Part shown: piece by piece, positions 43,430-55,204 of the stretch
Position numbering within the stretch: position 1 is the first letter of the stretch
How the letters are laid out: each line of letters begins with the position of its first letter
Sequence record: OP744025
Reading direction: 5' to 3' (one strand)
DNA from: Escherichia phage A5-4
Length of the DNA stretch: 64,000 nt
Program-made: the position numbers and the translations under genes
The notes under the pieces: generated by a model
Databases searched by the model: none
What the model was told of the DNA's origin: nothing
What the model saw: only the letters and a program-made list of their open reading frames with translations

Positions 43430-44201
43430 CAAAAGTTTAACGAGGTCGTTACTCTCGCCCACATCATTACATGTTGCCATACGTTTTCACGTATGGATCG
43501 GACTATATCACCATCCTTTTCAGGATGCTCCCCATTTCGACGGCACTTGCTCGCCTACGCCTCTCGGCTAGTCTCTGAACGTTAGGACCATGTGTAGTCA
43601 CAAGAGATGTGTGTCCAGTTTTTACGGATTTTTATGGACCTTACCACGTTGTAAGGATAACCCATATCCCGAATCTGTGCACTTCCATAACCTTGCCCCA
43701 GGAAGTTGCAAATCTCTCTAACCTCTTCTTCGGTAACTATACTTCTGGCGTTATCAACCCCTGTTGCTGAACGACATTTATCAGCAAAGGTTTTCTTGAT
43801 ATTTCCACCACGAGTTGTCCATTGGAGGTTTGAATAGTGGTTATTCCTTTTGTCAGGCCACTTATGATCAACCTCCGGCAAACCTTCAGGGTTTGGTACA
43901 AAACACTCTGCCACCAAAACGTGAACAGCCTTTGTAGTCGTCCTTTTGTTGAGATACAGACTTACAATAAGATACCCACGTCCATTATCAACTGCCGCCA
44001 TTGGTTTCCCTCGACGACCTATAATGGTCCCGTCTTCATAAACCTTGTAACCGAAATAATCTTTATATTCCACATGATCCTCTTCGCTGCTGATTAACAT
44101 AGTCTCATACTAACTCACACTTGAATTAATATCAACCTTAGTCTTCCAGCAATTAAAGGAGTTTTCGATGTGAGTTACCTCACAAAGCCACAATGTTACT
44201 T
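43430..44201 (-). mobile_element. Group I intron in DNA polymerase gene
   Basis: Group I elements R (GTTCAGAGACTAG) and S (GATATAGTCC) flanking a P8-like hairpin; free-standing HNH ORF; exon ends in U, intron ends in G; splice restores YYHDEYQLEV. Confidence 0.7.
43582..44100 (-). CDS. Intron-encoded HNH endonuclease
   Basis: GYLIVSL motif plus HNH core LVAECFVPNP...VDHKWPDKRNN...NLQWTT. Confidence 0.75.
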   Translation of the reverse strand: MLISSEEDHVEYKDYFGYKVYEDGTIIGRRGKPMAAVDNGRGYLIVSLYLNKRTTTKAVHVLVAECFVPNPEGLPEVDHKWPDKRNNHYSNLQWTTRGGNIKKTFADKCRSATGVDNARSIVTEEEVREICNFLGQGYGSAQIRDMGYPYNVVRSIKIRKNWTHISCDYTWS

Positions 44202-46085
44202 ATGGTAATAGATAATACGTCTAACGCCTTCATCATACCAACCTTTCTTGACCAACTGCCAGTGCAGGAGGATACCCACCAAGTCAAACAGTGCAGCACC
44301 ACCATTCTGCTGATAAGCATTAAGCAATGAGTGTTTGGAACGAGTGTAGATCTTACGCCCATCCAGACCATAGATGAATCGCTTACCGTTAGCTTCCCAA
44401 AACTTCTCTAATGCTTCTTTACGACCTTTCAAGCCGATGTTGCTATCCCAGAATGCGTCGATTACTGCTTGGGCTTTCTCAAGACTGATACCAAGCATTG
44501 ATGCAATCTTCGCTGCCTGTGCCCCGTACATGATTCCGTATGTCACCCCTTTACCTTCGCCACGAGAAACCTTCTTCCCTGCTGCTTTGGTATATGCTTC
44601 TGCGTTTCGGGAGTGAGCATCTCCAGATTCCATGATACGAAGATAAGCACCGCCATCGAAATCATAAGCGCCCCATGCTGCGATCATGCCTTCCAAGTTT
44701 GAACCGTCGATACCTACCTGATATTTACCCTCAGAGGCTCTGAATAGTTCACGCATCTCTTTACCGAGAAGAACTTTCTCATCCGGCTTAGGTACGTTTG
44801 CTACGATCGTATGCTTACGACGACCTGTGTTAGTTATTCCACTATAACGGGCCGGAAGTTTACCGTCAACTCGTAGACGTGGATGGTTAAGCCATCCGGT
44901 ATCAACCTTCTCTTCTTTCAGCGGGTCAAGAACAGATCGTCGGTTACGTAAAGACAGCCATTTAACAATCTGTTTAGCCATTTCACCATCTACTCGCTCA
45001 AGGTTAGGGCAAAGACCTTGCTGATCCTTAAGTTGCGGGGATGTTGGCAATGCACGAGCTTTCTTACGGAAAAACTTGAACATCTTTTCTTTATCTGACC
45101 ACTGCTTAGGTGTGATCGCCAAGCTTTTCAGAATCAGATCACGATACTCCGTCTGATCCAAATCTTCAATGTATTGACGAACAATCAGATCAACCTCACT
45201 ATCAGGACGCTGTTTCTTGAACTGATCTTTAGTTGCATCCTTTGTACGCCAAATTGTTGGGACCCACCCTGCATCACGGATCAGGAACTTCTTAACGTCG
45301 TCCTGGTTACCAATACGCATCGGAATCATAATGTCCGGCATCTTTTGTTCTTTGATATCCATCAAAGCACGAGCCATATCTTCCGGCGGCAAAGGAACAA
45401 GTCCTTGCTGCTTAACGTTTTGTGCACGGATAAAATCACCCATTTTGGATTCATCCTCTACACCGTGCTCAACACAATACTTGATCGCGGCGGCAGTAAG
45501 AGATCCGTCAGCCTTAAACGGCTTACTTGGTGCACCTTTAAACTCCAAGGCTTCCCAATTGATATTATAACCTAACTTCTCTAACCATTTCCAACCTGTA
45601 CCGGAAAGAGATCCATCACCCTTGAAAGGTTTAGATGGGAATGTCGGTTGTGCTGATTTCGACATCTCTTTCTTCGGCAACTTAGGTTCAACCTCTAACT
45701 CAATGTCTGTCATCATCTTATCGATACGATCACGAAGCTTGAGTGCTTTTTCTTCATCAAATGAAACACCCTGAATTTCTTGCTCAATCATCAGGTAGTC
45801 AGTCAACATACCTCGACGCAGGGCATTCTTCCAGTTGATCATTTTATACTTCTTCTGATCTTTGTCTGTTTCATCCTTATACATGAAGCGTTTATCATCC
45901 GGCATAGATTCACAAGAGATCTCTTTCATCAGAGCATCCCATACCATTTCGTTGATAATTACGTCTTCAATAATACGATCGCAATACTTCCAAAGTGGAA
46001 GGCCACGCCAATCTTCGATCGCCACTTTCTGGTTAGCTACTCGCATACCCCAAGCTTCAAGCCCGTGTGGCCCTACAGGCTTCAT
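44202..46085 (-). CDS. DNA polymerase (family A) polymerase-domain exon
   Basis: HGLEAWG (cf. T7 HALEAWG), Exo III-like DRIIEDVII, motif A/B region, ...GVRRIIYYH at exon end; track ORF reads through to stop at 44196. Confidence 0.75.
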
Positions 46086-46531
46086 TTTACCGTGACGGGG
46101 TTCTTTACCATCTCAGGACAACCGCGAGGCAGAGGGCGATCTGGATACAGTGTACGGGACATTGAAAGTGTATCGAAGATGTTTACTTGTTTACCATTAA
46201 TCGTACCCATGCAACCAGGGTCTGCAAACATATCGTAAGTTGTTCCAAGCATCTTCTTAAACAACTGGAGGTCGTAGCCGAAGATGTTGTGGATAGCAAT
46301 TGCTTTAGGCTCTGTGACAAACCACTCGTTTAATTCCTCAATGGTCCGAATCTTAAAGTTTTTACCTTTAGATTGGATAAATTTAACAGCTTGATCGTAA
46401 CCTTCCCGCTGGGGATCAAGAAAGATGTTCCAGTTATCTTTTTTATACTCTTTAAACAAGACGCAGTGAATCAGATCAACCTCTGTCAATAGACCATTCG
46501 CTTCCGCATCTCCAATAAATAAGCCTTTCAT
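46082..46531 (-). CDS. DNA polymerase N-terminal 3'-5' exonuclease segment
   Basis: Exo I DAEANGL and Exo II HNIFGYD; ATG at 46531 after AAGGAG RBS preferred over track start 46555; 4-nt overlap with next ORF in a different frame. Confidence 0.65.
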   Translation of the reverse strand: MKGLFIGDAEANGLLTEVDLIHCVLFKEYKKDNWNIFLDPQREGYDQAVKFIQSKGKNFKIRTIEELNEWFVTEPKAIAIHNIFGYDLQLFKKMLGTTYDMFADPGCMGTINGKQVNIFDTLSMSRTLYPDRPLPRGCPEMVKNPVTVK

Positions 46532-46604
46532 TTTTTCTCCTTCTTCAAGCTCCAACTAGACTAAAACAAAGCCCAGCCGGAGGTATGACCCTTCGGCTAG
46601 GTTA

Positions 46605-46697
46605 TCAAAAGTGTCGGTATCCTTCATCAATAAAATAAAGCATCACTAACAGGGCGAATACCCCACATAAGAAGATCAAGCCCAATAAGGTGGGCAT
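46605..46697 (-). CDS. Possible 30-aa hydrophobic peptide
   Basis: ATG overlapping upstream stop (TGATG); single hydrophobic helix. Confidence 0.3.
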   Translation of the reverse strand: MPTLLGLIFLCGVFALLVMLYFIDEGYRHF

Positions 46698-46930
46698 CAG
46701 TCTTCTATTACCTCAAATTCACCACTAAAAGCTACGATAGTTTCACCGTAGCCCATGTTCAATCGGGCAGTTGTAGGTTTGCCATTCCTAGATAGATAGT
46801 ACACCCTCGCTTCGTAAATGTCACCAACTTTTACACCGTAAGCCTGTAGGTCTTTGTTATTGATATCTTTATTTTCAGCATTGATTATTCGAACACTGCT
46901 GATCTCTGAGTATACAGAATTATCTTTCAT
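46697..46930 (-). CDS. Hypothetical small protein
   Basis: Internal ATG coupled (TAATG) to upstream stop preferred over track start 46972. Confidence 0.5.
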   Translation of the reverse strand: MKDNSVYSEISSVRIINAENKDINNKDLQAYGVKVGDIYEARVYYLSRNGKPTTARLNMGYGETIVAFSGEFEVIED

Positions 46931-47214
46931 CAGTATTTTTCCTCTGGACGGAAAACTCCACGGCAAGCCCACATACTTGCTTCTTTGAGGCGATCTTTAG
47001 CCTTAGATAAGCAATCAGATGCAAAAAGCACGGAATCTAGATCCCCTTCGGGAATCGAAGAGTCATTAGCCAGTCGATTATATTCCTCAATAATCTCGTC
47101 TTCTAATGCTTTTAAAATAAGACCTAAACGAATTTCAGCATCTTTAATGGCATTCACCTTACCGATTTTTTCATCGGTGTGTGGTTTGTAGCCCTTAATG
47201 TCATCAATAGCCAT
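46930..47214 (-). CDS. Hypothetical acidic protein
   Basis: 94-aa ORF. Confidence 0.55.
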   Translation of the reverse strand: MAIDDIKGYKPHTDEKIGKVNAIKDAEIRLGLILKALEDEIIEEYNRLANDSSIPEGDLDSVLFASDCLSKAKDRLKEASMWACRGVFRPEEKY

Positions 47215-47696
47215 TACCAGTCCTCCTCTGTTTGTTCATACTCTGAAGGGGTGATGAAGTAATTCTGACCCCGCTTGCACTGGTTGAAAGTCCCAACATA
47301 CCAAGTACCGATATCCATGTTGATGAAAGTTTCTTCTTGAACAAAGATCAGATCAGCAAGATTATTGTCTGATCGTTGAGTCGCTAATAAAATATGCTCA
47401 AAATCTGCTAATGTCAGGTTATAACAGAAGCCGTCTTCGTCTTCCATGATTGCAACAACAGAACTACGCCCTTGGGTAAATTTACGAAACTGTAGACGTA
47501 AATGGCGATGCTCATGATCATTAGTCTTAACCTTTTTTCGATTTTCAAAGTATTCTTCGGAATAGTGTGGATGCTTTAATTTCAGTTTTTCAATTTCCTC
47601 AATAGAAAGAGCGTCCTTATCCCAACCAGTAAACCACTTACCATTATCATTAAATACCGCAGGGTATTTACGCTTACTTAAATCTTTAAACATCAT
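47214..47696 (-). CDS. Hypothetical protein
   Basis: Start at ATGATG after GGAGG RBS preferred over track start 47756. Confidence 0.55.
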   Translation of the reverse strand: MMFKDLSKRKYPAVFNDNGKWFTGWDKDALSIEEIEKLKLKHPHYSEEYFENRKKVKTNDHEHRHLRLQFRKFTQGRSSVVAIMEDEDGFCYNLTLADFEHILLATQRSDNNLADLIFVQEETFINMDIGTWYVGTFNQCKRGQNYFITPSEYEQTEEDW

Positions 47697-48018
47697 AGTC
47701 CTCCCCATAAATATCTTGAATTTTTGAAACCAGGTATTCAGGATCACTACCATCATACCACACTTCTACGAAAACCTTTTGGGAATCCTTAACGATCTTT
47801 GCCCCTACTCTTTCAATCCCCTTAAAGAAAGATTGTAAGATGTAATCATCCAGCAAGTTCACCCCGTAAGCATCGTGGAGAGATTTCTCATCGTGAACAT
47901 ACACAACCATCTTACCATCGTAGGTGAGTTGGATATGGGGATCATCTTCCCAAGCAATAGCCGGAGAATCCGGCTCAAGCTTTGCGATAACCCCAATCGT
48001 CAAGCAGTTGTCACTCAC
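47686..48018 (-). CDS. Hypothetical protein
   Basis: 110-aa ORF, coupled. Confidence 0.55.
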   Translation of the reverse strand: MSDNCLTIGVIAKLEPDSPAIAWEDDPHIQLTYDGKMVVYVHDEKSLHDAYGVNLLDDYILQSFFKGIERVGAKIVKDSQKVFVEVWYDGSDPEYLVSKIQDIYGEDYDV

Positions 48019-49232
48019 TCCTTACCTCCTGCGATACGTAACATTTGGATAGTTTTCTCCAGTTCTTTACGAGGTTTGGCAACCAGGCGACGTTCATGTC
48101 GCTTAAGGAAACCCTCTAAAAACTCCAACGGTTTAAATGATAACACTTCCTGAACTGATTCGTCAACAGCATATTCTTTCTGGACCATACGATAAACCGG
48201 ATTCTTTACAGTTACCGGAGTATAACCCTTCGTGATCGCCATCTGAGTAACAACACGTTTCTTACCGTCGGTCCACGAATCGTCAATAGGGAAAGAATCT
48301 TTTCCGTATTTTTCAGCGAACAACTTAACTGCTGTCTTTGTCAGGTCGTCCTGATCTTCTTGTGACCGACTTTGACCCCAATAATAGCCACCAGAGGTCT
48401 TAGCACGACGTTCTGAGAACAAAGCAAGGTCATCGTACTGCTCAAGAGCTAAACGCGCCAGAAGTTCGATATCGTCGCTTTCTGACAGTAGTCGGTTTGC
48501 TTCGTACTTAACCTCAAAAGTATTTGCACTGTCACGATCACGGTCAAGAGTAAAAGCCTCTGGCTTAAAATCATAATCGAATTTAAAATTACCTGGAACA
48601 CGAGTAACGAACAGTCCATTTACAAACAGGTTGCAGTCGCCACCTGTGATAGAGCCATCCTCTTCTTCATTTTGGTATTCGTCCGCAGCATTGTATAGCT
48701 TAGTATAAGCTTTACCGCGGTCATTCTGAATAACGACTGTACGTTCAGTAGTTGGTGCATAGTTATCCATAATTTCCGACATAGCGTACTGAGGGATGTT
48801 TTCAATGATAACGGTCACAGTATTTGAATCACGACCCGATAAGGCGTTTTCATGGATATCCACCGCCAAAATGTTCTGTTCGTATGTGGTATCGTAAACC
48901 ATATTTGGAATCCAAAGATCATTACCATTTTCGATAACGATATCTGCGCCTTCACGAACAAGCACCAGAAGACCCACTTTCAGACCTTCACCAAACTTAC
49001 CGATCTTACTGTCATCATCACGTTTGGTTGAAACACCCATCAAAAGGCCGGAAACAGGAACAACACCGCCACGAGAGATGATTGTGATCTTACCTTGATT
49101 ACTATCATCATTCCCAAAATAAATATTGAAATCTTCTGTATCGATAGCATTTTGCATGAGTTCACGAGCACCTTGCCACCATGACCAGTGGCTGACGTAA
49201 TTTTCAGTGATGCTCAATTTAATCTGTTTCAT
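48015..49232 (-). CDS. GHKL-family ATPase (Bergerat fold)
   Basis: N-box ELMQNAIDTED and G-box IGKFGEGLKVG. Confidence 0.6.
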   Translation of the reverse strand: MKQIKLSITENYVSHWSWWQGARELMQNAIDTEDFNIYFGNDDSNQGKITIISRGGVVPVSGLLMGVSTKRDDDSKIGKFGEGLKVGLLVLVREGADIVIENGNDLWIPNMVYDTTYEQNILAVDIHENALSGRDSNTVTVIIENIPQYAMSEIMDNYAPTTERTVVIQNDRGKAYTKLYNAADEYQNEEEDGSITGGDCNLFVNGLFVTRVPGNFKFDYDFKPEAFTLDRDRDSANTFEVKYEANRLLSESDDIELLARLALEQYDDLALFSERRAKTSGGYYWGQSRSQEDQDDLTKTAVKLFAEKYGKDSFPIDDSWTDGKKRVVTQMAITKGYTPVTVKNPVYRMVQKEYAVDESVQEVLSFKPLEFLEGFLKRHERRLVAKPRKELEKTIQMLRIAGGKE

Positions 49233-49244
49233 TTATTTGTCCTC

Positions 49245-49961
49245 TTATTTGTTGTATTGATAAATTGCTTCAGCTAAGCCCCGTGGGGTTAGTGACCGGA
49301 TCATCTTAGTTCTTGCTGACTTACCTCCTAACTTATTCTGCTGATCTGACCAACCAGGTGCAACAGGAACCGGAGAGGTTTTTGGAATTATAAACCCATT
49401 TCCTGTCCAAAGTCCAGTCTTTTTCGGATAAGCATCCCTTGGTTTAATGTATTGAGGAAAATAAGGGTTAACATCATTTACCGGAAGGTAACCGCCATAT
49501 TCCCAAGGGTTAAAATATACAGTAGGTTTTCGCCATTGTCCAGCTAAAACACTTACTGGGTTTTCAATCATATACGGACAATCGAAAACAAATTCAGCAA
49601 GCCAAGCTGCAATCTTCGCAGTTCTTACCGCCTTGACCTGGAAGAAAGGATCTTTTGCTTTCTTCGATGCAAAGTGACGAGAACCACTAACAGCCATATC
49701 GGTACATGGAGGATAGGCAAGGATCAGGTCCGGCGCAGGCAATCCTAAGTTCTCTACATTCTCCATCCATTCAATATCGATAAAGGCGTTAACGTAAGTG
49801 ATGTTGGGATGAATTTCCTTTACGCCTTCATAATCCCCGTGATCAGCATCGTCATAGTTGAAGCAGTAGCATTTGTGCCCTGCCTTCGCCCAGGGAAGAA
49901 CATCAATCCCTGAACCAGAAAAGAGACTCCAGATAATCTTTTTATTCATCGTAGCATCCAA
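49245..49961 (-). CDS. Minimal C5 cytosine methyltransferase-like protein
   Basis: Motif I LFSGSGI, motif IV YPPC, motif VI IENPV in canonical order and spacing; only 238 aa. Confidence 0.5.
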   Translation of the reverse strand: MDATMNKKIIWSLFSGSGIDVLPWAKAGHKCYCFNYDDADHGDYEGVKEIHPNITYVNAFIDIEWMENVENLGLPAPDLILAYPPCTDMAVSGSRHFASKKAKDPFFQVKAVRTAKIAAWLAEFVFDCPYMIENPVSVLAGQWRKPTVYFNPWEYGGYLPVNDVNPYFPQYIKPRDAYPKKTGLWTGNGFIIPKTSPVPVAPGWSDQQNKLGGKSARTKMIRSLTPRGLAEAIYQYNK

Positions 49962-50254
49962 ATAGTGGTTAATTTACAAATACACCAGAAAATCCCGATC
50001 AGTGTAGCCAGAGTAATAACACAAGTCAATACTATAGGTAAGAATATCGTCATAATCACTGCAAAGACTGAAATACCTATGCTTGCAATAAGATCCGGCA
50101 CGAAATAGTGAAATGGATCTCTTGCCTTTTTAATGTTGTCCCATGTTATTACTACGGAGCTAAGGACGAGCCAGAATAAAAAGTACAAAATGCAAGGAAA
50201 TAAAGTCATGTGTGACTTAACCATATCAAACCACATGTTGTAGAATTCAATCAT
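49946..50254 (-). CDS. Membrane protein
   Basis: 102 aa, three hydrophobic helices. Confidence 0.55.
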   Translation of the reverse strand: MIEFYNMWFDMVKSHMTLFPCILYFLFWLVLSSVVITWDNIKKARDPFHYFVPDLIASIGISVFAVIMTIFLPIVLTCVITLATLIGIFWCICKLTTIWMLR

Positions 50255-50574
50255 TCAGTTTTCCTCGGTACAGATGCAATAACAGCCTTTTCGACGAGAC
50301 ATACAATAAATCTCCCAATCCCTGCCAAAAGGAGAGCAAAGACTGTAAAAGGCAACCCATAAATAAGAACCAAAATCATCAATCCAAAACAAGCGGAAAA
50401 CAGGACTTCTGTGCCTAGCCACATTTTGGAGTAATTGATATAATTATGCCGCAATTTTAAAAACAGTCCAGCAATAGAGCCTACAGAAAATATACCAATC
50501 AACCAAGGTGCAGTTACAAATGAACGACTGAACCCTTCCCAAAAAACAAAAACATTAATGATTGCTTCGATCAT
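50251..50574 (-). CDS. Membrane protein
   Basis: 107 aa, about three hydrophobic helices. Confidence 0.55.
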   Translation of the reverse strand: MIEAIINVFVFWEGFSRSFVTAPWLIGIFSVGSIAGLFLKLRHNYINYSKMWLGTEVLFSACFGLMILVLIYGLPFTVFALLLAGIGRFIVCLVEKAVIASVPRKTE

Positions 50575-50825
50575 AAACCATACCTCGCTTCATATAAGAA
50601 TTCATCAAGATCTTTACTGTCGTCGGAACCTTCTACTGTCAACGGCATCAGGTGTTCTTTGAAATAATAGCAAAGATTGCCGGAACTCGTTTCCACTAAA
50701 CATGTGGTTTTGCAAACCATCTTAACTTTCACCGATAGTCCCGCATCTTCATGGCTGTGGACCATTGCAAGACAACCATCATAAAGCTTATCCTCGTAAG
50801 GTAAGCAAGGATCTGGATTTTTCAT
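50571..50825 (-). CDS. Hypothetical Cys-rich small protein
   Basis: 84-aa ORF. Confidence 0.55.
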   Translation of the reverse strand: MKNPDPCLPYEDKLYDGCLAMVHSHEDAGLSVKVKMVCKTTCLVETSSGNLCYYFKEHLMPLTVEGSDDSKDLDEFLYEARYGL

Positions 50826-51118
50826 CGTGAACTTTCCTCCTCCGCATGTTTACGCACCCATTCTACACGGGACGCGTTCAGGTGTTTGTTATCGTCGTAG
50901 TGATACGCTTTCCAACCTTCGTCGAAAGGGAACTCCCAGTTCAGTCCGGCATCGGTAAACTGTTGCTGCATCTCTTTGAGTAACTTATAGTCACACTCTG
51001 AAAACTCTTCCAGTGCGTTACACAGACCGCAGGTCCGATCAAACGTCTCGGAGTGTGGTGCACCAGCGTCAAGCCACTCAGCATAGGCTTTATAGAATGC
51101 TTTAAGTTGCTCGCTCAT
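50822..51118 (-). CDS. Hypothetical protein, paralog of 40320..40646
   Basis: Shared FYxxYxxWLDxGAP...GLC...DAGLN motif pattern. Confidence 0.6.
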   Translation of the reverse strand: MSEQLKAFYKAYAEWLDAGAPHSETFDRTCGLCNALEEFSECDYKLLKEMQQQFTDAGLNWEFPFDEGWKAYHYDDNKHLNASRVEWVRKHAEEESSR

Positions 51119-51514
51119 TTATTTATCCTCTGCATATGCAATCTTAGTCATGTAGTCAATACAATCATATTGAACATTGTGGCTATTAAAAACAGCCTTG
51201 TCTTTGTAAATAACTTGCCAATAATCAATGCTTTCAATTTCGGAAAGGTATGCAACACACTCCCCTTTTGGATTAATAAGTTCAACTCGATCAGTTTCTC
51301 GTAATTTCCAACCAGTAGGTAACTGAACAGCTTGTTCCTTAAAAATCACAATATCGTCACGGTGACCAGTTGCCCTTTTAAATGCCCGCAGTAATTCTTT
51401 GTATTCACGATATTTCACATAAAGGCCGTCCTCTGATTTTTCCATACGGGCTTCATTGATATTGCAATTACCATCCATATCTCCAACCAGGTCGTAACGA
51501 TATACAGGTTTCAT
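51119..51514 (-). CDS. Hypothetical protein
   Basis: 131-aa ORF. Confidence 0.55.
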   Translation of the reverse strand: MKPVYRYDLVGDMDGNCNINEARMEKSEDGLYVKYREYKELLRAFKRATGHRDDIVIFKEQAVQLPTGWKLRETDRVELINPKGECVAYLSEIESIDYWQVIYKDKAVFNSHNVQYDCIDYMTKIAYAEDK

Positions 51515-51723
51515 TTTTTAACTTTCTCCTTTTTCTCAGGTTTTACATCGCAAACTTTTTGTTGATAACTGATCGGTGTTACATAGCGCCACGTCTTTTT
51601 AAGGTTCTCAACGAGGATTCGCATTTGTTCCTCATCAGCACCCCAGCCTGCGGTATGTGCTATTTCATCAACACTCATCTGGCATTTAACGTACCATCTT
51701 GTAATTGTCTTCGATTGTATCAT
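51511..51723 (-). CDS. Hypothetical small protein
   Basis: 70-aa ORF. Confidence 0.5.
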   Translation of the reverse strand: MIQSKTITRWYVKCQMSVDEIAHTAGWGADEEQMRILVENLKKTWRYVTPISYQQKVCDVKPEKKEKVKK

Positions 51724-51750
51724 TATCGTTTCCTTGAGGTCAAGAGATTT

Positions 51751-52047
51751 TTATTTAATACCTAATTCTTTTGCACTGTAAATATCATTACCTTCATAGC
51801 CTTTGTAGTAGATCAGGATATCTTTGACAATCTCTCCCGTCGGTCCGCTCCGGCGAGTACGTGGTCGCTGTGCATTGACCAAATAAACTTCACCACGAGT
51901 ATTTATTTTTGTTGTACGATGGCCTTCGACAAAGGTCAAAGTTGTATATGCAGGAACCTTAACAAGAACTTCTACCTGGTCACCAGCAGTATTCTGTTGT
52001 TCATTTGCCATATCATCTTTAACAACAGTAGTCATAAGTTTGGTCAT
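51751..52047 (-). CDS. Hypothetical protein
   Basis: 98-aa ORF. Confidence 0.55.
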   Translation of the reverse strand: MTKLMTTVVKDDMANEQQNTAGDQVEVLVKVPAYTTLTFVEGHRTTKINTRGEVYLVNAQRPRTRRSGPTGEIVKDILIYYKGYEGNDIYSAKELGIK

Positions 52048-52049
52048 TT

Positions 52050-52313
52050 TTATTCTCCTTTGTTCAGTGTGGATACGAATTCGATATAAGATTCTGCATT
52101 TCGTTTATGATAAATCTTAGGGTAACTTTCGGTTACTTTGCTGTATTTGATGTATCGCTCAAACATACCGACGACACCACCAATGGAATGCACAACAACG
52201 CCCTCTTCACCAACAAAGGTAACAACCTCTACGAATGGAGTATTATCGTAAGAGCGATTTACAATCAGGTCGCCAACTTCAAATTCGATTTTATCATTTT
52301 GTGAGTAGTACAT
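52050..52313 (-). CDS. Hypothetical protein
   Basis: ATG at 52313 after AAGGAG RBS preferred over track start 52373. Confidence 0.55.
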   Translation of the reverse strand: MYYSQNDKIEFEVGDLIVNRSYDNTPFVEVVTFVGEEGVVVHSIGGVVGMFERYIKYSKVTESYPKIYHKRNAESYIEFVSTLNKGE

Positions 52314-52409
52314 TTGTTTTCTCCTTTCTGTTTGGTATGGGAGAAGTATAGGGAAGTTTGATGAGGGTGTCAATAGAAAAAACCGCCCGAAGGCGGTTTA
52401 TTTTTAGGA

Positions 52410-53519
52410 TCAGAAAGGTGCGTCGTCGTCCCAATCATCCGGCTCTGTGTCCGGCACATCAGGAATATCACCTGTGGATTCAACGATACTTTGTTGTTCC
52501 CACGTAGGTTCTTCTGAAGGTTGTTCCATTTCTTCCATAACCTTCTTGATCTCTTCCTCTTGCTCACGCAGGAAGTTATCATCCGGCTCAGGAATATCTT
52601 CCTCTTTAATATCTGAACGAGTGAGATCACTGTTTTGTTCAGACAGAGGTTGAATCTCTGCTGCTTTAGGCTTAAAGTCTGGAGAACGATGATCATCTTC
52701 TGGATGAGCGGCATACCACTCACGAAGAGTTTCATAAGGACTCTCTAAGAAGCCCTCTGGCGGTTCCAGATAATCACCCGTGTCAATGTCATAGAACACA
52801 GGGAATTTACCAGCACGACCGTGTTTACGGTCATCCAGAATAACAAAGTAAGAAGTGTTACGTTGTTTCATCGGGAGTTCTGGATCTTTGTTACGTTCAA
52901 TACCCCACATGTAATAAGTGTTACGCATCATTGCACGGCTACCAGCAAACTGCGCTGACTGGACTTGACCACCAAATTCATGAGGCTTACCAGATTCAGG
53001 CTTGTTAAGGTGACAGAAGCAATAATAGGTAAAGCCAAGCTCTTTTGCCAGTTTGGAGATCTCATCAGAGAATCGTTCCAGTTCCTGGTTAGCTTCGGAA
53101 GCACTCATACCTTGCACAAGACGAGTGATTGGGTCAATAAAGATATCTTCACAACCTTCTACGATCACTGCGTGACGGATAGCACCTTTCAGTTCATCCC
53201 ATACTGCACGACCATAGTTGTTATAATAGATAACACTATCACCAACTTCATCAGTAGCCTTGATCAGTTCTTCTTGCTTAAAGTAGCCACGTTGACCTTC
53301 AAATACTTCATTACCCCAAATGTCACGGAAAGTTCCATCTTCTTGAGGAATCATTACCTTTTCTGCGTTAACAAAGTCTTTATGATAACGCTTACCTGCG
53401 ATCTTTTTACAGGTAATTTCGTTCTCTTCTTCAAACTTAAACACCGCAGCCTTTGACTTCTCAATACCTGTAATGTGTTCTACCATCTGGTTAAGAAGTT
53501 CAGACTTACCCATTTTCAC
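52410..53519 (-). CDS. Primase-helicase (T7 gp4-like) 3' exon, helicase core
   Basis: Begins within Walker A (V)KMGKSELL; CFCHLNKPESGKPHEFGGQ matches T7 ICHLKNPDKGKAHEEGRP; acidic tail ...DDWDDDAPF. Confidence 0.75.
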   Translation of the reverse strand: MKMGKSELLNQMVEHITGIEKSKAAVFKFEEENEITCKKIAGKRYHKDFVNAEKVMIPQEDGTFRDIWGNEVFEGQRGYFKQEELIKATDEVGDSVIYYNNYGRAVWDELKGAIRHAVIVEGCEDIFIDPITRLVQGMSASEANQELERFSDEISKLAKELGFTYYCFCHLNKPESGKPHEFGGQVQSAQFAGSRAMMRNTYYMWGIERNKDPELPMKQRNTSYFVILDDRKHGRAGKFPVFYDIDTGDYLEPPEGFLESPYETLREWYAAHPEDDHRSPDFKPKAAEIQPLSEQNSDLTRSDIKEEDIPEPDDNFLREQEEEIKKVMEEMEQPSEEPTWEQQSIVESTGDIPDVPDTEPDDWDDDAPF

Positions 53520-54268
53520 CGTTATGTTCGACAGGGTTCGCTACTCCCTGCCCGTTCTCTTACGAACTGCTACATGTCCCCATGCAGACCAGACTATATC
53601 TTCAACCTGTTTCCAGGTGCTATGCACTTCGGACCGCTTGGCCCTACTCTACTCGATTCAAGAGTCTAGCTCTTGTCTTTCGATAGTCGTTGCTCCTTCC
53701 TCTCAACCGCTTTGTAATTTGTCTTACGGTATCTCTGTGTATCCCAAAATGCTCTGCAATTTCTTTTTGTTGAAGCGTGGTATTAATAACCATTTCGTAA
53801 ACCTGCTTCTCAAAATCATCAGCATATCTATTTGGATTTCTTCTACCGTTGGCCCAACCATGATCGACATTTTCTTTCGTGGTTGTCCATTCCAAATTAA
53901 CATCGTTGTTGTTTTGCCTGTCGCTATCTTTATGATTAACAACAGGAAGGTTATGAGGGTTATCAACGTAGTGTTCAGCCACCAATTGGTGAATAAATCT
54001 ACGTGTAACCTTACCATCTTTACTTAACGAAACTCTAAGATACCCTGAACTATTGGTATCCGGTTTGAGTTTTTTAAGCTTCCGGTAAACATCTCCCCTT
54101 CGGGTAATGATGTAATTTTCAAAACCTTTTATTCTTTTCATTTCCCCCCCTTGCAATAAACAAAGAGGTTGAGAGGCTTGGATCAGGATTACGTGTTCTA
54201 CGCTTCCCCTGAGTTCACATAGTATTTAGTCGAGGCATCTCTGCCAAGGCTGGCTAGACTTAATGTTT
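53520..54268 (-). mobile_element. Group I intron in primase-helicase gene
   Basis: Intervening block splits the P-loop; S element GATATAGTCT and P8-like hairpin CACCTG-GAAA-CAGGT downstream of HNH ORF; splice as GAG|VKMGKS fits U-before/G-last rule. Confidence 0.65.
53644..54156 (-). CDS. Intron-encoded HNH endonuclease
   Basis: GYLRVSL plus LVAEHYVDNP...VNHKDSDRQNN...NLEWTT; paralog of 43582..44100. Confidence 0.75.
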   Translation of the reverse strand: MQGGEMKRIKGFENYIITRRGDVYRKLKKLKPDTNSSGYLRVSLSKDGKVTRRFIHQLVAEHYVDNPHNLPVVNHKDSDRQNNNDVNLEWTTTKENVDHGWANGRRNPNRYADDFEKQVYEMVINTTLQQKEIAEHFGIHRDTVRQITKRLRGRSNDYRKTRARLLNRVE

Positions 54269-55204
54269 ACCAGCACCGATGAAGTAACCTTCACCTGGAC
54301 GACGACCCAAGGTAAGCTTGGTCATGGTGGGCCAAGGGAACTTCTTGCCGAGTTTAGGGATCTCATGTGCCTTTTCGCGGAACTGTGAATAAGTCGAGAA
54401 ACCATCCGGCACATATTCCTTTGGCTTCATTGCAGCCCAAAACAACTGATCAGAAAGTCCTTTGTTATACATGTCGCAAGGGTCCATATCTTCTGGAATG
54501 TCCACGACCTTCATTTGTGGAATTACAGAGTATACCGCTGCAACTGCATCTTTACCTTTCATGATCCCTTTGGCCTTCTCTGCTTCTGTCGCACGGTCAG
54601 CATCGAAAGCTACGATAATCTCTTCAAACTTACTCAGAAGCTTATAGTTATTCTTCTGTGATAAGTTTTGCACGGCATTGGATGTACCGTTAGAGATAGA
54701 TACAACTGTGAAGTTTGGTTTACGAGTGGAACCATCCTTCGGTTTGTACTTCTCTGTCAATACCTGCCACAAGATTGCAGCATCATATTCACCTTCAGTG
54801 ATAAAGATCATACGTTTGGAAGACTTATTTGCACCTTCCAGCCCAAACATATCACAAGCCACAGATTGGAAACCAATAGTTGTAAAGTGACCTTTCTGTT
54901 GCTTAGGGATCGTAAGATCACGCTTCTTAAAACCTACAACCTTACCTTCTAATGTATACGGGAAATAATGTGCTTCTGGTGTCATACCGTCTTTAGCTGA
55001 CAGTTTGGTACGAATACCAAATCGTTTAGCTGTCTTTTCGTCGATACCGCGCTCAGGGATACTTTTGCACGGGTAAGTCAATACGTCTTCAACTGTTTCT
55101 TCTACACGAGACACACCACCACCATAATTACGTGCTACTGAAGCTTTAGGATTTTTATGTCCAAACTTATAACCGCCAAACAAACTTTCGCCAATAGTGC
55201 TCAT
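54269..55204 (-). CDS. Primase-helicase (T7 gp4-like) 5' exon, TOPRIM primase part
   Basis: TOPRIM IFITEGEYDAAIL and VAFDAD; ends ...GEGYFIGAG at start of Walker A; no zinc-ribbon Cys motifs. Confidence 0.7.

Follow-up and report, generated by a model that had tools for sequence, protein, structure and literature searches.

An orphan Dcm-like cytosine methyltransferase and an adjacent GHKL ATPase of Escherichia phage A5-4 are probably functionally independent

A stretch of 64,000 nucleotides from Escherichia phage A5-4 (sequence record OP744025; hereafter, the window) contains two neighboring genes on the minus strand, namely, an orphan Dcm-like C5-cytosine DNA methyltransferase gene (49245..49949, 234 amino acids) and a gene for an ATPase of the GHKL superfamily (48015..49232, 405 amino acids). 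These are most likely two functionally independent genes, which are adjacent because of local gene order in one early block that is probably co-transcribed. The methylase adds a member to a known, widespread, and experimentally anchored phage family, and the ATPase adds one to a large, uncharacterized, and almost exclusively viral family within a known superfamily. An initial annotation, made from the sequence alone, had proposed that the pair may be a DNA modification or anti-restriction module. Members of the methylase family are plausible anti-restriction genes, as this proposal implied, whereas the occurrence of the two genes in other phages did not bear out a two-gene module.

Occurrence of the gene pair

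Methylases of the phrog_757 type were present in 1,549 phage records, mostly from Escherichia, Klebsiella, and Salmonella phages of several families, vs. 101 records for the ATPase; among Escherichia phages, the corresponding counts were 576 and 8. When 79 IMG/VR loci encoding relatives of the ATPase were taken together with flanks of up to 10 kb in both directions, a methylase occurred within 10 kb of the ATPase in three loci, all of which were Certrevirus-like, and the pairing was otherwise found only in two records of the group of Escherichia phage A7_1. Approximately 94% of the ATPase loci had no methylase within 10 kb, and more than 90% of the methylase-containing genomes had no ATPase. 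Phage phiTE encodes an ATPase that is 71% identical to that of the window and has no methylase nearby, with a CapR-domain gene and a BCS1-like AAA gene located upstream, and in pEp_SNUABM_01 the methylase and the ATPase are about 104 kb apart. The window methylase was 45-46% identical to the methylases of phages whose ATPase is 69-75% identical, and 55-62% identical to those of small siphoviruses that have no ATPase; these identity levels suggest that the two genes have had discordant histories.

A conserved partner of the ATPase was not found in any of the neighborhood searches. Clustering by BLAST of the six open reading frames (ORFs) on either side of the ATPase gene in the 79 loci revealed no family common to more than 10 loci, and a jackhmmer search with the 110-amino acid ORF downstream of the ATPase gene retrieved close relatives only. 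Among 136 ATPase neighbors of at least 170 amino acids, a Pfam census detected no family in more than four and no enrichment of methyltransferases; the neighbors were a mix of helicases, exonucleases, PDDEXK nucleases, a ligase, and RecT. Targeted Pfam scans of the genes upstream of the ATPase in its relatives likewise yielded no conserved partner.

These results make it very unlikely that the ATPase is a MORC/paraMORC-like clamp whose action on the minimal methylase (loading, targeting, or regulation) offsets the tiny recognition domain of the latter. As the initial annotation had stated, the methylase ORF lies directly upstream of the ATPase gene; both are on the same strand, and only 12 nt separate its stop codon from the ATG of the ATPase gene, with a GAGGA ribosome-binding site in the gap, and this spacing, together with probable co-transcription, speaks for a module. 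The same is true of the methylase-then-ATPase order, which is kept in the three Certrevirus-like loci, and of MORC2, which is among the structural matches of the ATPase model. Iyer, Abhiman and Aravind are also said to have described in 2008 prokaryotic MORC-like GHKL ATPases beside restriction-modification genes, a point that was counted in favor of a module. Against it stand the census of both genes, the discordant identity levels, the lack of any enriched methyltransferase near the ATPase, the loss or separation of the pairing in phiTE and pEp_SNUABM_01, and a homologous methylase that works alone in Escherichia coli (see below). Adjacency in a tightly packed operon of a phage says little about a module unless it is kept across lineages, and here it was not kept.

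In one of the Certrevirus-like loci (L003:8653-9937), an HNH_3-AP2 endonuclease gene and an ORF with a Laminin_G_3 domain are situated between the methylase and the ATPase, and mobile insertions seem to concentrate in the interval between these two genes.

The methylase is a small member of a functional family

The initial annotation had described an ORF of 238 amino acids (49245..49961) that carried the C5-methyltransferase motifs I, IV, and VI in canonical order, and the translation contained LFSGSGI, YPPC, and IENPV in this order. The ORF itself is thus real, but its length needs correction: the 238-amino acid reading opens at the earliest possible TTG (49961), whereas close relatives are annotated from an ATG four codons later. 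Because of this annotation, and because the ATG at 49949 overlaps the stop codon of the upstream gene as ATGA, the latter is most likely the true start, giving a product of 234 amino acids. A profile search indicated that phrog_757 of the PHROGs collection (“DNA methyltransferase”) matched over the full length (4.7e-78, residues 3-237). The Pfam model DNA_methylase (PF00145), the search with which had been suggested as a check, matched at 3e-4 across motifs I-IV (profile positions 4-94 of 324) and scored 20.7 bits against a gathering threshold of 22; TIGR00675 scored 15 bits against a cut-off of 100.65.

Conservation was counted over 40 family members. Motif I, LFSGSGI (residues 9-15, 49905..49925, minus strand), corresponds to the FxGxG loop that binds S-adenosylmethionine (AdoMet), and its F10, G12, S13, and G14 are invariant or nearly so. 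Motif IV, YPPCTD (residues 79-84, 49698..49715, minus strand), contains the catalytic Cys82, with P80, P81, and C82 invariant. Motif VI, IENPV (residues 128-132, 49554..49568, minus strand), is of the ENV type in the form E-N-P, in which Pro takes the place of the Val of ENV, and E129, N130, and P131 are invariant. The C-terminal part (49260..49427, minus strand) consists of a motif VIII region with PKKT (residues 175-178), a target-recognition stretch of approximately 35 residues, and a motif IX/X-like C-terminus, IRSLTPRGLAEAIY (residues 217-230); K176, T178, I217-L220, P222, and R223 are invariant in this part. A search of the methylase for the QxRxR signature of motif VIII found none, and the corresponding strand carries the invariant P175-K176-K177-T178.

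The initial annotation had considered the protein too short for a normal target-recognition domain, which agrees with the predicted structure. No domain of normal size was found between motifs VIII and IX, where approximately 35 residues show little regular structure, and residues 184-211 form only one short strand and short helices. The structure model, which was a confident one, has the catalytic fold of C5-methyltransferases with a short, DNMT3-like target-recognition region, and its best structural match was DNMT3B, whose target-recognition domain is likewise short. More than 2,326 relatives of the methylase were found in the protein collection, with lengths of 219-262 amino acids, nearly all of which fell between 220 and 260. 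The minimal recognition region is a property of a functional and known family and not an oddity of this phage.

The family is anchored by a characterized relative. The trigger of retron Ec86 was reported to be the 711-bp dcm gene of phage KarlJaspers strain K42, the genome of which is 95.4% similar to that of KarlJaspers (Ec86 preprint). Expression of K42 dcm raised the level of 5-methylcytosine (5mC) in multicopy single-stranded DNA (msDNA), as measured by liquid chromatography coupled to mass spectrometry (LC-MS); the gene was the escape locus for the retron; the enzyme was active when expressed alone in E. coli; and a C82A/E128A/K175A/K176A mutant was inactive (Ec86 preprint). According to a later paper, retron Eco1 is activated when msDNA is methylated at cytosine by the phage. 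The window methylase is 55% identical over its whole length to bas06_0055 of KarlJaspers (MZ501090), which is annotated as a “Dcm-like C5 cytosine methyltransferase”; the two proteins have 234 and 236 amino acids, respectively, and belong to the same PHROG family. Cys82, the Glu of motif VI, and the pair of lysines are aligned between them: C82 of the window methylase aligns with C82 of KarlJaspers, the residue mutated in the inactive K42 control, E129 is the equivalent of K42 E128, and the lysines of PKKT are the equivalents of K175 and K176. A confident annotation of the short ORF is that of an orphan Dcm-like C5-cytosine methyltransferase.

By analogy with this relative, the window methylase is predicted to use AdoMet and the Cys82 nucleophile of its PC motif to place 5mC on DNA, probably at CCWGG, the target that was proposed for the characterized enzyme. 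It would work as a single small protein with a reduced target-recognition region, much as DNMT3. The likely benefit is that phage DNA would be shielded from methylation-sensitive restriction, and the cost may be the triggering of retron Eco1/Ec86, which is known for the relative. Transfer of a group other than methyl, or action on a substrate other than duplex DNA (for example, carboxymethylation, single-stranded DNA, or RNA), is highly improbable, as 5mC was identified by LC-MS for the K42 enzyme and the structural matches, at 10-17% identity, reflect the shared catalytic fold only. Two predictions can be made from the proposed activity, namely, that the DNA of the window phage carries 5mC independently of the host Dcm, and that this phage is sensed by retron Eco1/Ec86. 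Avoidance of CCWGG was also tried as a proxy for specificity; the window contained 74 sites vs. 87±9 expected, neither an avoidance nor an enrichment, and the proxy gave no signal either way.

The ATPase belongs to a large viral family

The ATPase matched phrog_6077, a PHROGs family of unknown function, at 7.2e-126. Both peptides on which the initial annotation had based its GHKL assignment were present in the translation of 48015..49232 (minus strand): the N-box, RELMQNAIDTED (residues 23-34, 49131..49166), in which Glu24 is the putative catalytic residue and Asn28 the Mg-binding one, and IGKFGEGLKVG (residues 77-87, 48972..49004), which represents the G2 box, located where the ATP lid ends, and contains GxxGxG as G78-K-F-G81-E-G83. 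The N-box and the G2 box are intact, but the canonical G1 box (DxGxG) is missing, being represented by a degenerate S53-R-G-G(-V) (49065..49076, minus strand), in which S53 aligns with the Asp of ‘DTGPG’ in the distant family member P0057 and of ‘RDFGxG’ in rIIA.

A model calculated by AlphaFold2 (AF2) from a 38-sequence alignment reached a predicted local distance difference test (pLDDT) score of 84 and a predicted template modeling (pTM) score of 0.76. According to this model and its two-domain GHKL matches, residues 1 to approximately 237 comprise a Bergerat-fold domain and a second, beta-rich domain, as in the GHL/MORC branch; this conserved core (residues 1-237) is encoded by 48522..49232 and ends near an LDRDRD motif (residues 229-234, 48531..48548), a candidate sensor of the gamma-phosphate. 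The remaining region (residues 238-405, 48018..48521) is variable and mostly helical, with a low-confidence linker at residues 280-286, as judged from the AF2 secondary structure and pLDDT; its approximately 170 residues are poorly conserved in distant relatives and had no match in Pfam, PDB, or NCBIfam. The fold of the ATPase and the conservation of its catalytic residues are shown by these data. Nucleotide hydrolysis, dimerization, and a clamp action are predicted from the superfamily, and a role of the invariant RDR as a gamma-phosphate sensor is suggested by its likeness to the ‘SRE’ of Hsp90 and of rIIA.

Sequence searches with the protein itself were mostly negative. Direct searches against PDB found no match, and neither did Pfam, including HATPase_c and HATPase_c_3, so that this half of the profile check suggested by the initial annotation failed for the window protein. 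The NCBIfam model of the sacsin ATP-binding domain matched at 2e-5, below its curated cut-off, and the same sub-threshold match was found in 36 of 38 family members. When the family profile was compared with PDB sequences, IGKFGEGLKVG matched the G2-box region of MORC2, which was a weak match and the only one of that search. A weak N-terminal similarity to TmtA (Tiamat) of PADLOC, at 2e-4, was treated as generic GHKL similarity and not as membership in a defense system.

Residue conservation in the family was counted in 219 aligned domains. R23, E24, N28, D31, G66, K70, G78, E82, G83, K85, G206, R231, D232, and R233 were essentially invariant, with G78, E82, G83, and R231 present in all 219, E24, N28, D232, and R233 in 218, and D31 and K85 in 217. 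The position of the G1 Asp (53) was occupied by Ser in 119 domains, Asn in 51, Asp in 30, and Thr in 18. The loss of this Asp beside an invariant catalytic Glu and Asn may reflect an altered nucleotide preference. A pseudo-ATPase or scaffold, or a protein that binds another nucleotide (GTP or a signaling nucleotide) through the loss of the Asp, would account for the Ser, Asn, or Thr in 86% of the domains and for the missing HATPase_c match of the window protein. The near invariance of the catalytic Glu, the Mg-binding Asn, the G2 box, Lys85, and RDR across members with less than 50% identity is hard to explain without catalysis, which renders this explanation improbable.

An exhaustive profile search retrieved 6,121 cluster representatives at E ≤ 1e-3; with E ≤ 1e-30, the number was 1,644. 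Family members are almost all on viral or phage-like contigs, some of which are of jumbo-phage size, and their hosts include Vibrio, Pseudomonas, Pectobacterium, Escherichia, and Erwinia, along with one Streptococcus phage. A pattern-limited scan of 185,579 bacterial species genomes found at least 11 ATPase loci, mostly on contigs of metagenome-assembled genomes, and the one match that carries a species name, labeled Sphingobacterium mizutaii, sits in a phage-like contig of 73 kb. Literature searches found no study of this family. Metagenomic relatives of approximately 1,100 amino acids contain three tandem GHKL modules (P0189 at L087:671-3988, P0190, P0193, P0196, P0198, P0206, P0210, and P0224), an architecture that recalls the three Hsp90-like repeats of sacsin; one contig was retrieved, which is 7 kb long and offers little context. 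These three-repeat relatives and P0057 pass the Pfam HATPase_c thresholds. A faint match to PF25856 (MPN635_N), which is named after the N-terminus of the uncharacterized Mycoplasma pneumoniae protein MPN_635, was present in the precomputed annotations of P0031, P0051, P0054, P0057, and P0189, and was not reproduced by a local Pfam scan.

After the family itself, rIIA proteins were the best matches in a BFVD fold search (E about 1e-9 to 1e-8), and an hhalign comparison of the family with a 19-sequence profile of rIIA N-termini spanned the stretch bounded by the N-box and the G2 box (E 7.6e-5, with a probability of 62%). The same comparison with the single T4 rIIA sequence was not significant, and T4 rIIA as a query had no match in the window. 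True rIIA is present elsewhere in related phage genomes, alongside the ATPase, and there is none in the window, so the ATPase is regarded as a lineage separate from rIIA. An identification of the ATPase as rIIA itself was rejected on these grounds, as well as on its length of 405 amino acids, the lack of an adjoining rIIB, and the hhalign probability given above.

The ATPase most likely binds and hydrolyzes a nucleotide with the help of Glu24, Asn28, and a closing G2 lid. It is probably a conformational clamp of the Hsp90/rIIA kind; in this scheme, Arg231 and Arg233 would serve as sensors of the gamma-phosphate, and a client would be held by the variable C-terminal region. The best guess for its role is an accessory function in host interaction or counter-defense, as has been proposed for rIIA; this guess, which is preferred to a core role in replication, is based on the patchy distribution, the variable C-terminus, the early-gene context, and rIIA as the nearest viral relative. 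The main alternative is that the protein would work with the replication and recombination machinery of the phage as a clamp in DNA transactions, of the MutL, MORC, or topoisomerase-ATPase type. This appears rather unlikely, although less so than a pseudo-ATPase, because the protein shows no recognizable domain or partner of the DNA-binding, Toprim, or nuclease type and is not accompanied by any one replication gene, and because the patchy distribution and the variable C-terminal region suit an accessory gene.

Functional implications

Several observations weigh against the interpretation of two independent genes with the functions proposed above. The 12-nt spacing and probable co-transcription in the A7_1 group, together with the gene order kept in the Certrevirus-like loci, leave room for a lineage-specific cooperation that might exist in the A7_1/Certrevirus lineage. 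The searches around the 79 loci provided no conserved partner that would point to the role of the ATPase. Because the canonical adenine-binding Asp is gone, ATP binding is only predicted. Furthermore, the CCWGG specificity was assigned by analogy with the host Dcm and from one mutated site (Ec86 preprint).

In a broader and tentative interpretation, the ATPase would represent a very large phage-borne class of Hsp90/sacsin/rIIA-like ATPases, with at least 6,000 clusters at 50% identity, including the three-module proteins. This class, the pocket of which is remodeled (Ser or Asn for Asp, with an invariant FGEGxK and RDR), may possess a so-far unrecognized activity in host takeover or counter-defense, and could cooperate with the adjacent methylase in the A7_1/Certrevirus lineage. 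The family is abundant phage dark matter with clear catalytic signatures and an unusual nucleotide pocket, and finding its role would annotate thousands of genes.

Genomic context

A 4-kb stretch around the gene pair was 97.6% identical at the DNA level to Escherichia phage A7_1 and 93-94% identical to phages W70, A73, LTH01, and UPEC06. All five are unclassified Vequintavirinae with genomes of approximately 140 kb, and the window is from a Vequintavirinae-type, rV5-related E. coli phage. Structural genes occupy the plus strand up to about 34 kb, and replication and early genes the minus strand beyond; the sign of the GC skew switches at about 34 kb, the point at which the coding strand changes. 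The methylase and the ATPase, which have the primase/helicase genes on one side and the DNA polymerase gene on the other, are part of a series of small and tightly packed ORFs.

Consensus scans, in combination with start and stop codons that overlap or nearly abut, delimited a probable transcription unit of about 14 early genes (46680..52399, minus strand) that includes both genes. A strong, GC-rich, terminator-like hairpin with a perfect 8-bp stem (52399-52380, minus strand) is followed immediately by a near-consensus promoter, TTGACA-17-TATACT (52373-52345, minus strand), and a terminator-like site (46695-46680, minus strand) is situated at the downstream end. Judging from sequence patterns only, the methylase and the ATPase probably share one transcription unit of approximately 5.7 kb, and the terminator and promoter at 52345-52399 probably mark the start of the early operon that carries both genes.

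Directly upstream of the methylase, two small ORFs of 102 and 107 amino acids (49946-50574, minus strand) are strongly hydrophobic and resemble multi-pass membrane proteins. One of these matches phrog_15955 (function unknown), and neither had a match in Pfam.

The DNA polymerase A gene is split by a 772-nt insertion (43430-44211, minus strand) that is missing in A7_1. The insertion matched the Rfam group I intron RF00028 over its full length (42.9 bits, E 3e-9 in a local search, which is under the gathering score of 50) and contains an ORF for an HNH_3-type endonuclease (43582-44100), with polymerase residues 1-785 and 786-884 encoded on either side. In addition, a single-base deletion relative to A7_1 at about 46092 (minus strand; TTTTACC-GTGAC vs. 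TTTTACCTGTGAC), outside any homopolymer run, shifts the polymerase frame past about residue 155; the ORFs concerned are 46082-46555 and 44196-46085. Possible explanations of this frameshift are an error in sequencing, a pseudogene, and recoding. Another ORF of the HNH_3-like kind, the second in the window, has a helix-turn-helix tail (53644-54156, minus strand) and lies between a primase-like ORF (54260-55204) and a DnaB-like helicase ORF (52410-53519), which jointly resemble a single primase/helicase profile, and a weak group I intron match was found at 53570-53760 (24.6 bits, E 7.5e-4).

Comparison with known systems

Type II topoisomerases, MutL, and MORC/paraMORC proteins share the superfamily with the window ATPase, but the latter has neither a Toprim or GyrA partner nor a MutL C-terminal domain, and CW and coiled-coil domains are missing as well. 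Unlike the MORC/paraMORC modules linked to restriction-modification systems, its family has no conserved restriction-modification neighborhood. Compared with Hsp90/TRAP1 and sacsin, the ATPase lacks the Hsp90 middle and C-terminal domains as well as the G1 Asp, and its matches in NCBIfam were all under the curated cut-off. The statement of the initial annotation that a gyrase, MutL, or Hsp90 context could not be recognized holds in each of these respects. T4 rIIA, likewise a GHKL protein of a virus, combines a conserved ATPase module at the N-terminus with a C-terminal part that is variable, and its ‘SRE’ (R278/E279, nearly invariant) is placed similarly to the RDR of the ATPase. On the other hand, rIIA proteins have 700-800 amino acids, keep the G1 Asp, and have a partner in rIIB, whereas the window ATPase has 405 amino acids, no G1 Asp, and no adjoining rIIB.

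The window methylase shares just 10-21% identity with DNMT3A, DNMT3B, M.HhaI, and other classical C5-methyltransferases. The classical enzymes have QxRxR as motif VIII, in contrast to the PKKT and the target-recognition stretch of approximately 35 residues of the window methylase; the latter matched only the first third of the PF00145 model, below the gathering score. The closest characterized counterpart is the Dcm of KarlJaspers/K42. These phages are Drexlerviridae, in which dcm is among small early genes beside a helicase gene and no GHKL gene is present, whereas the window phage belongs to another phage family and carries its methylase in another genomic context.

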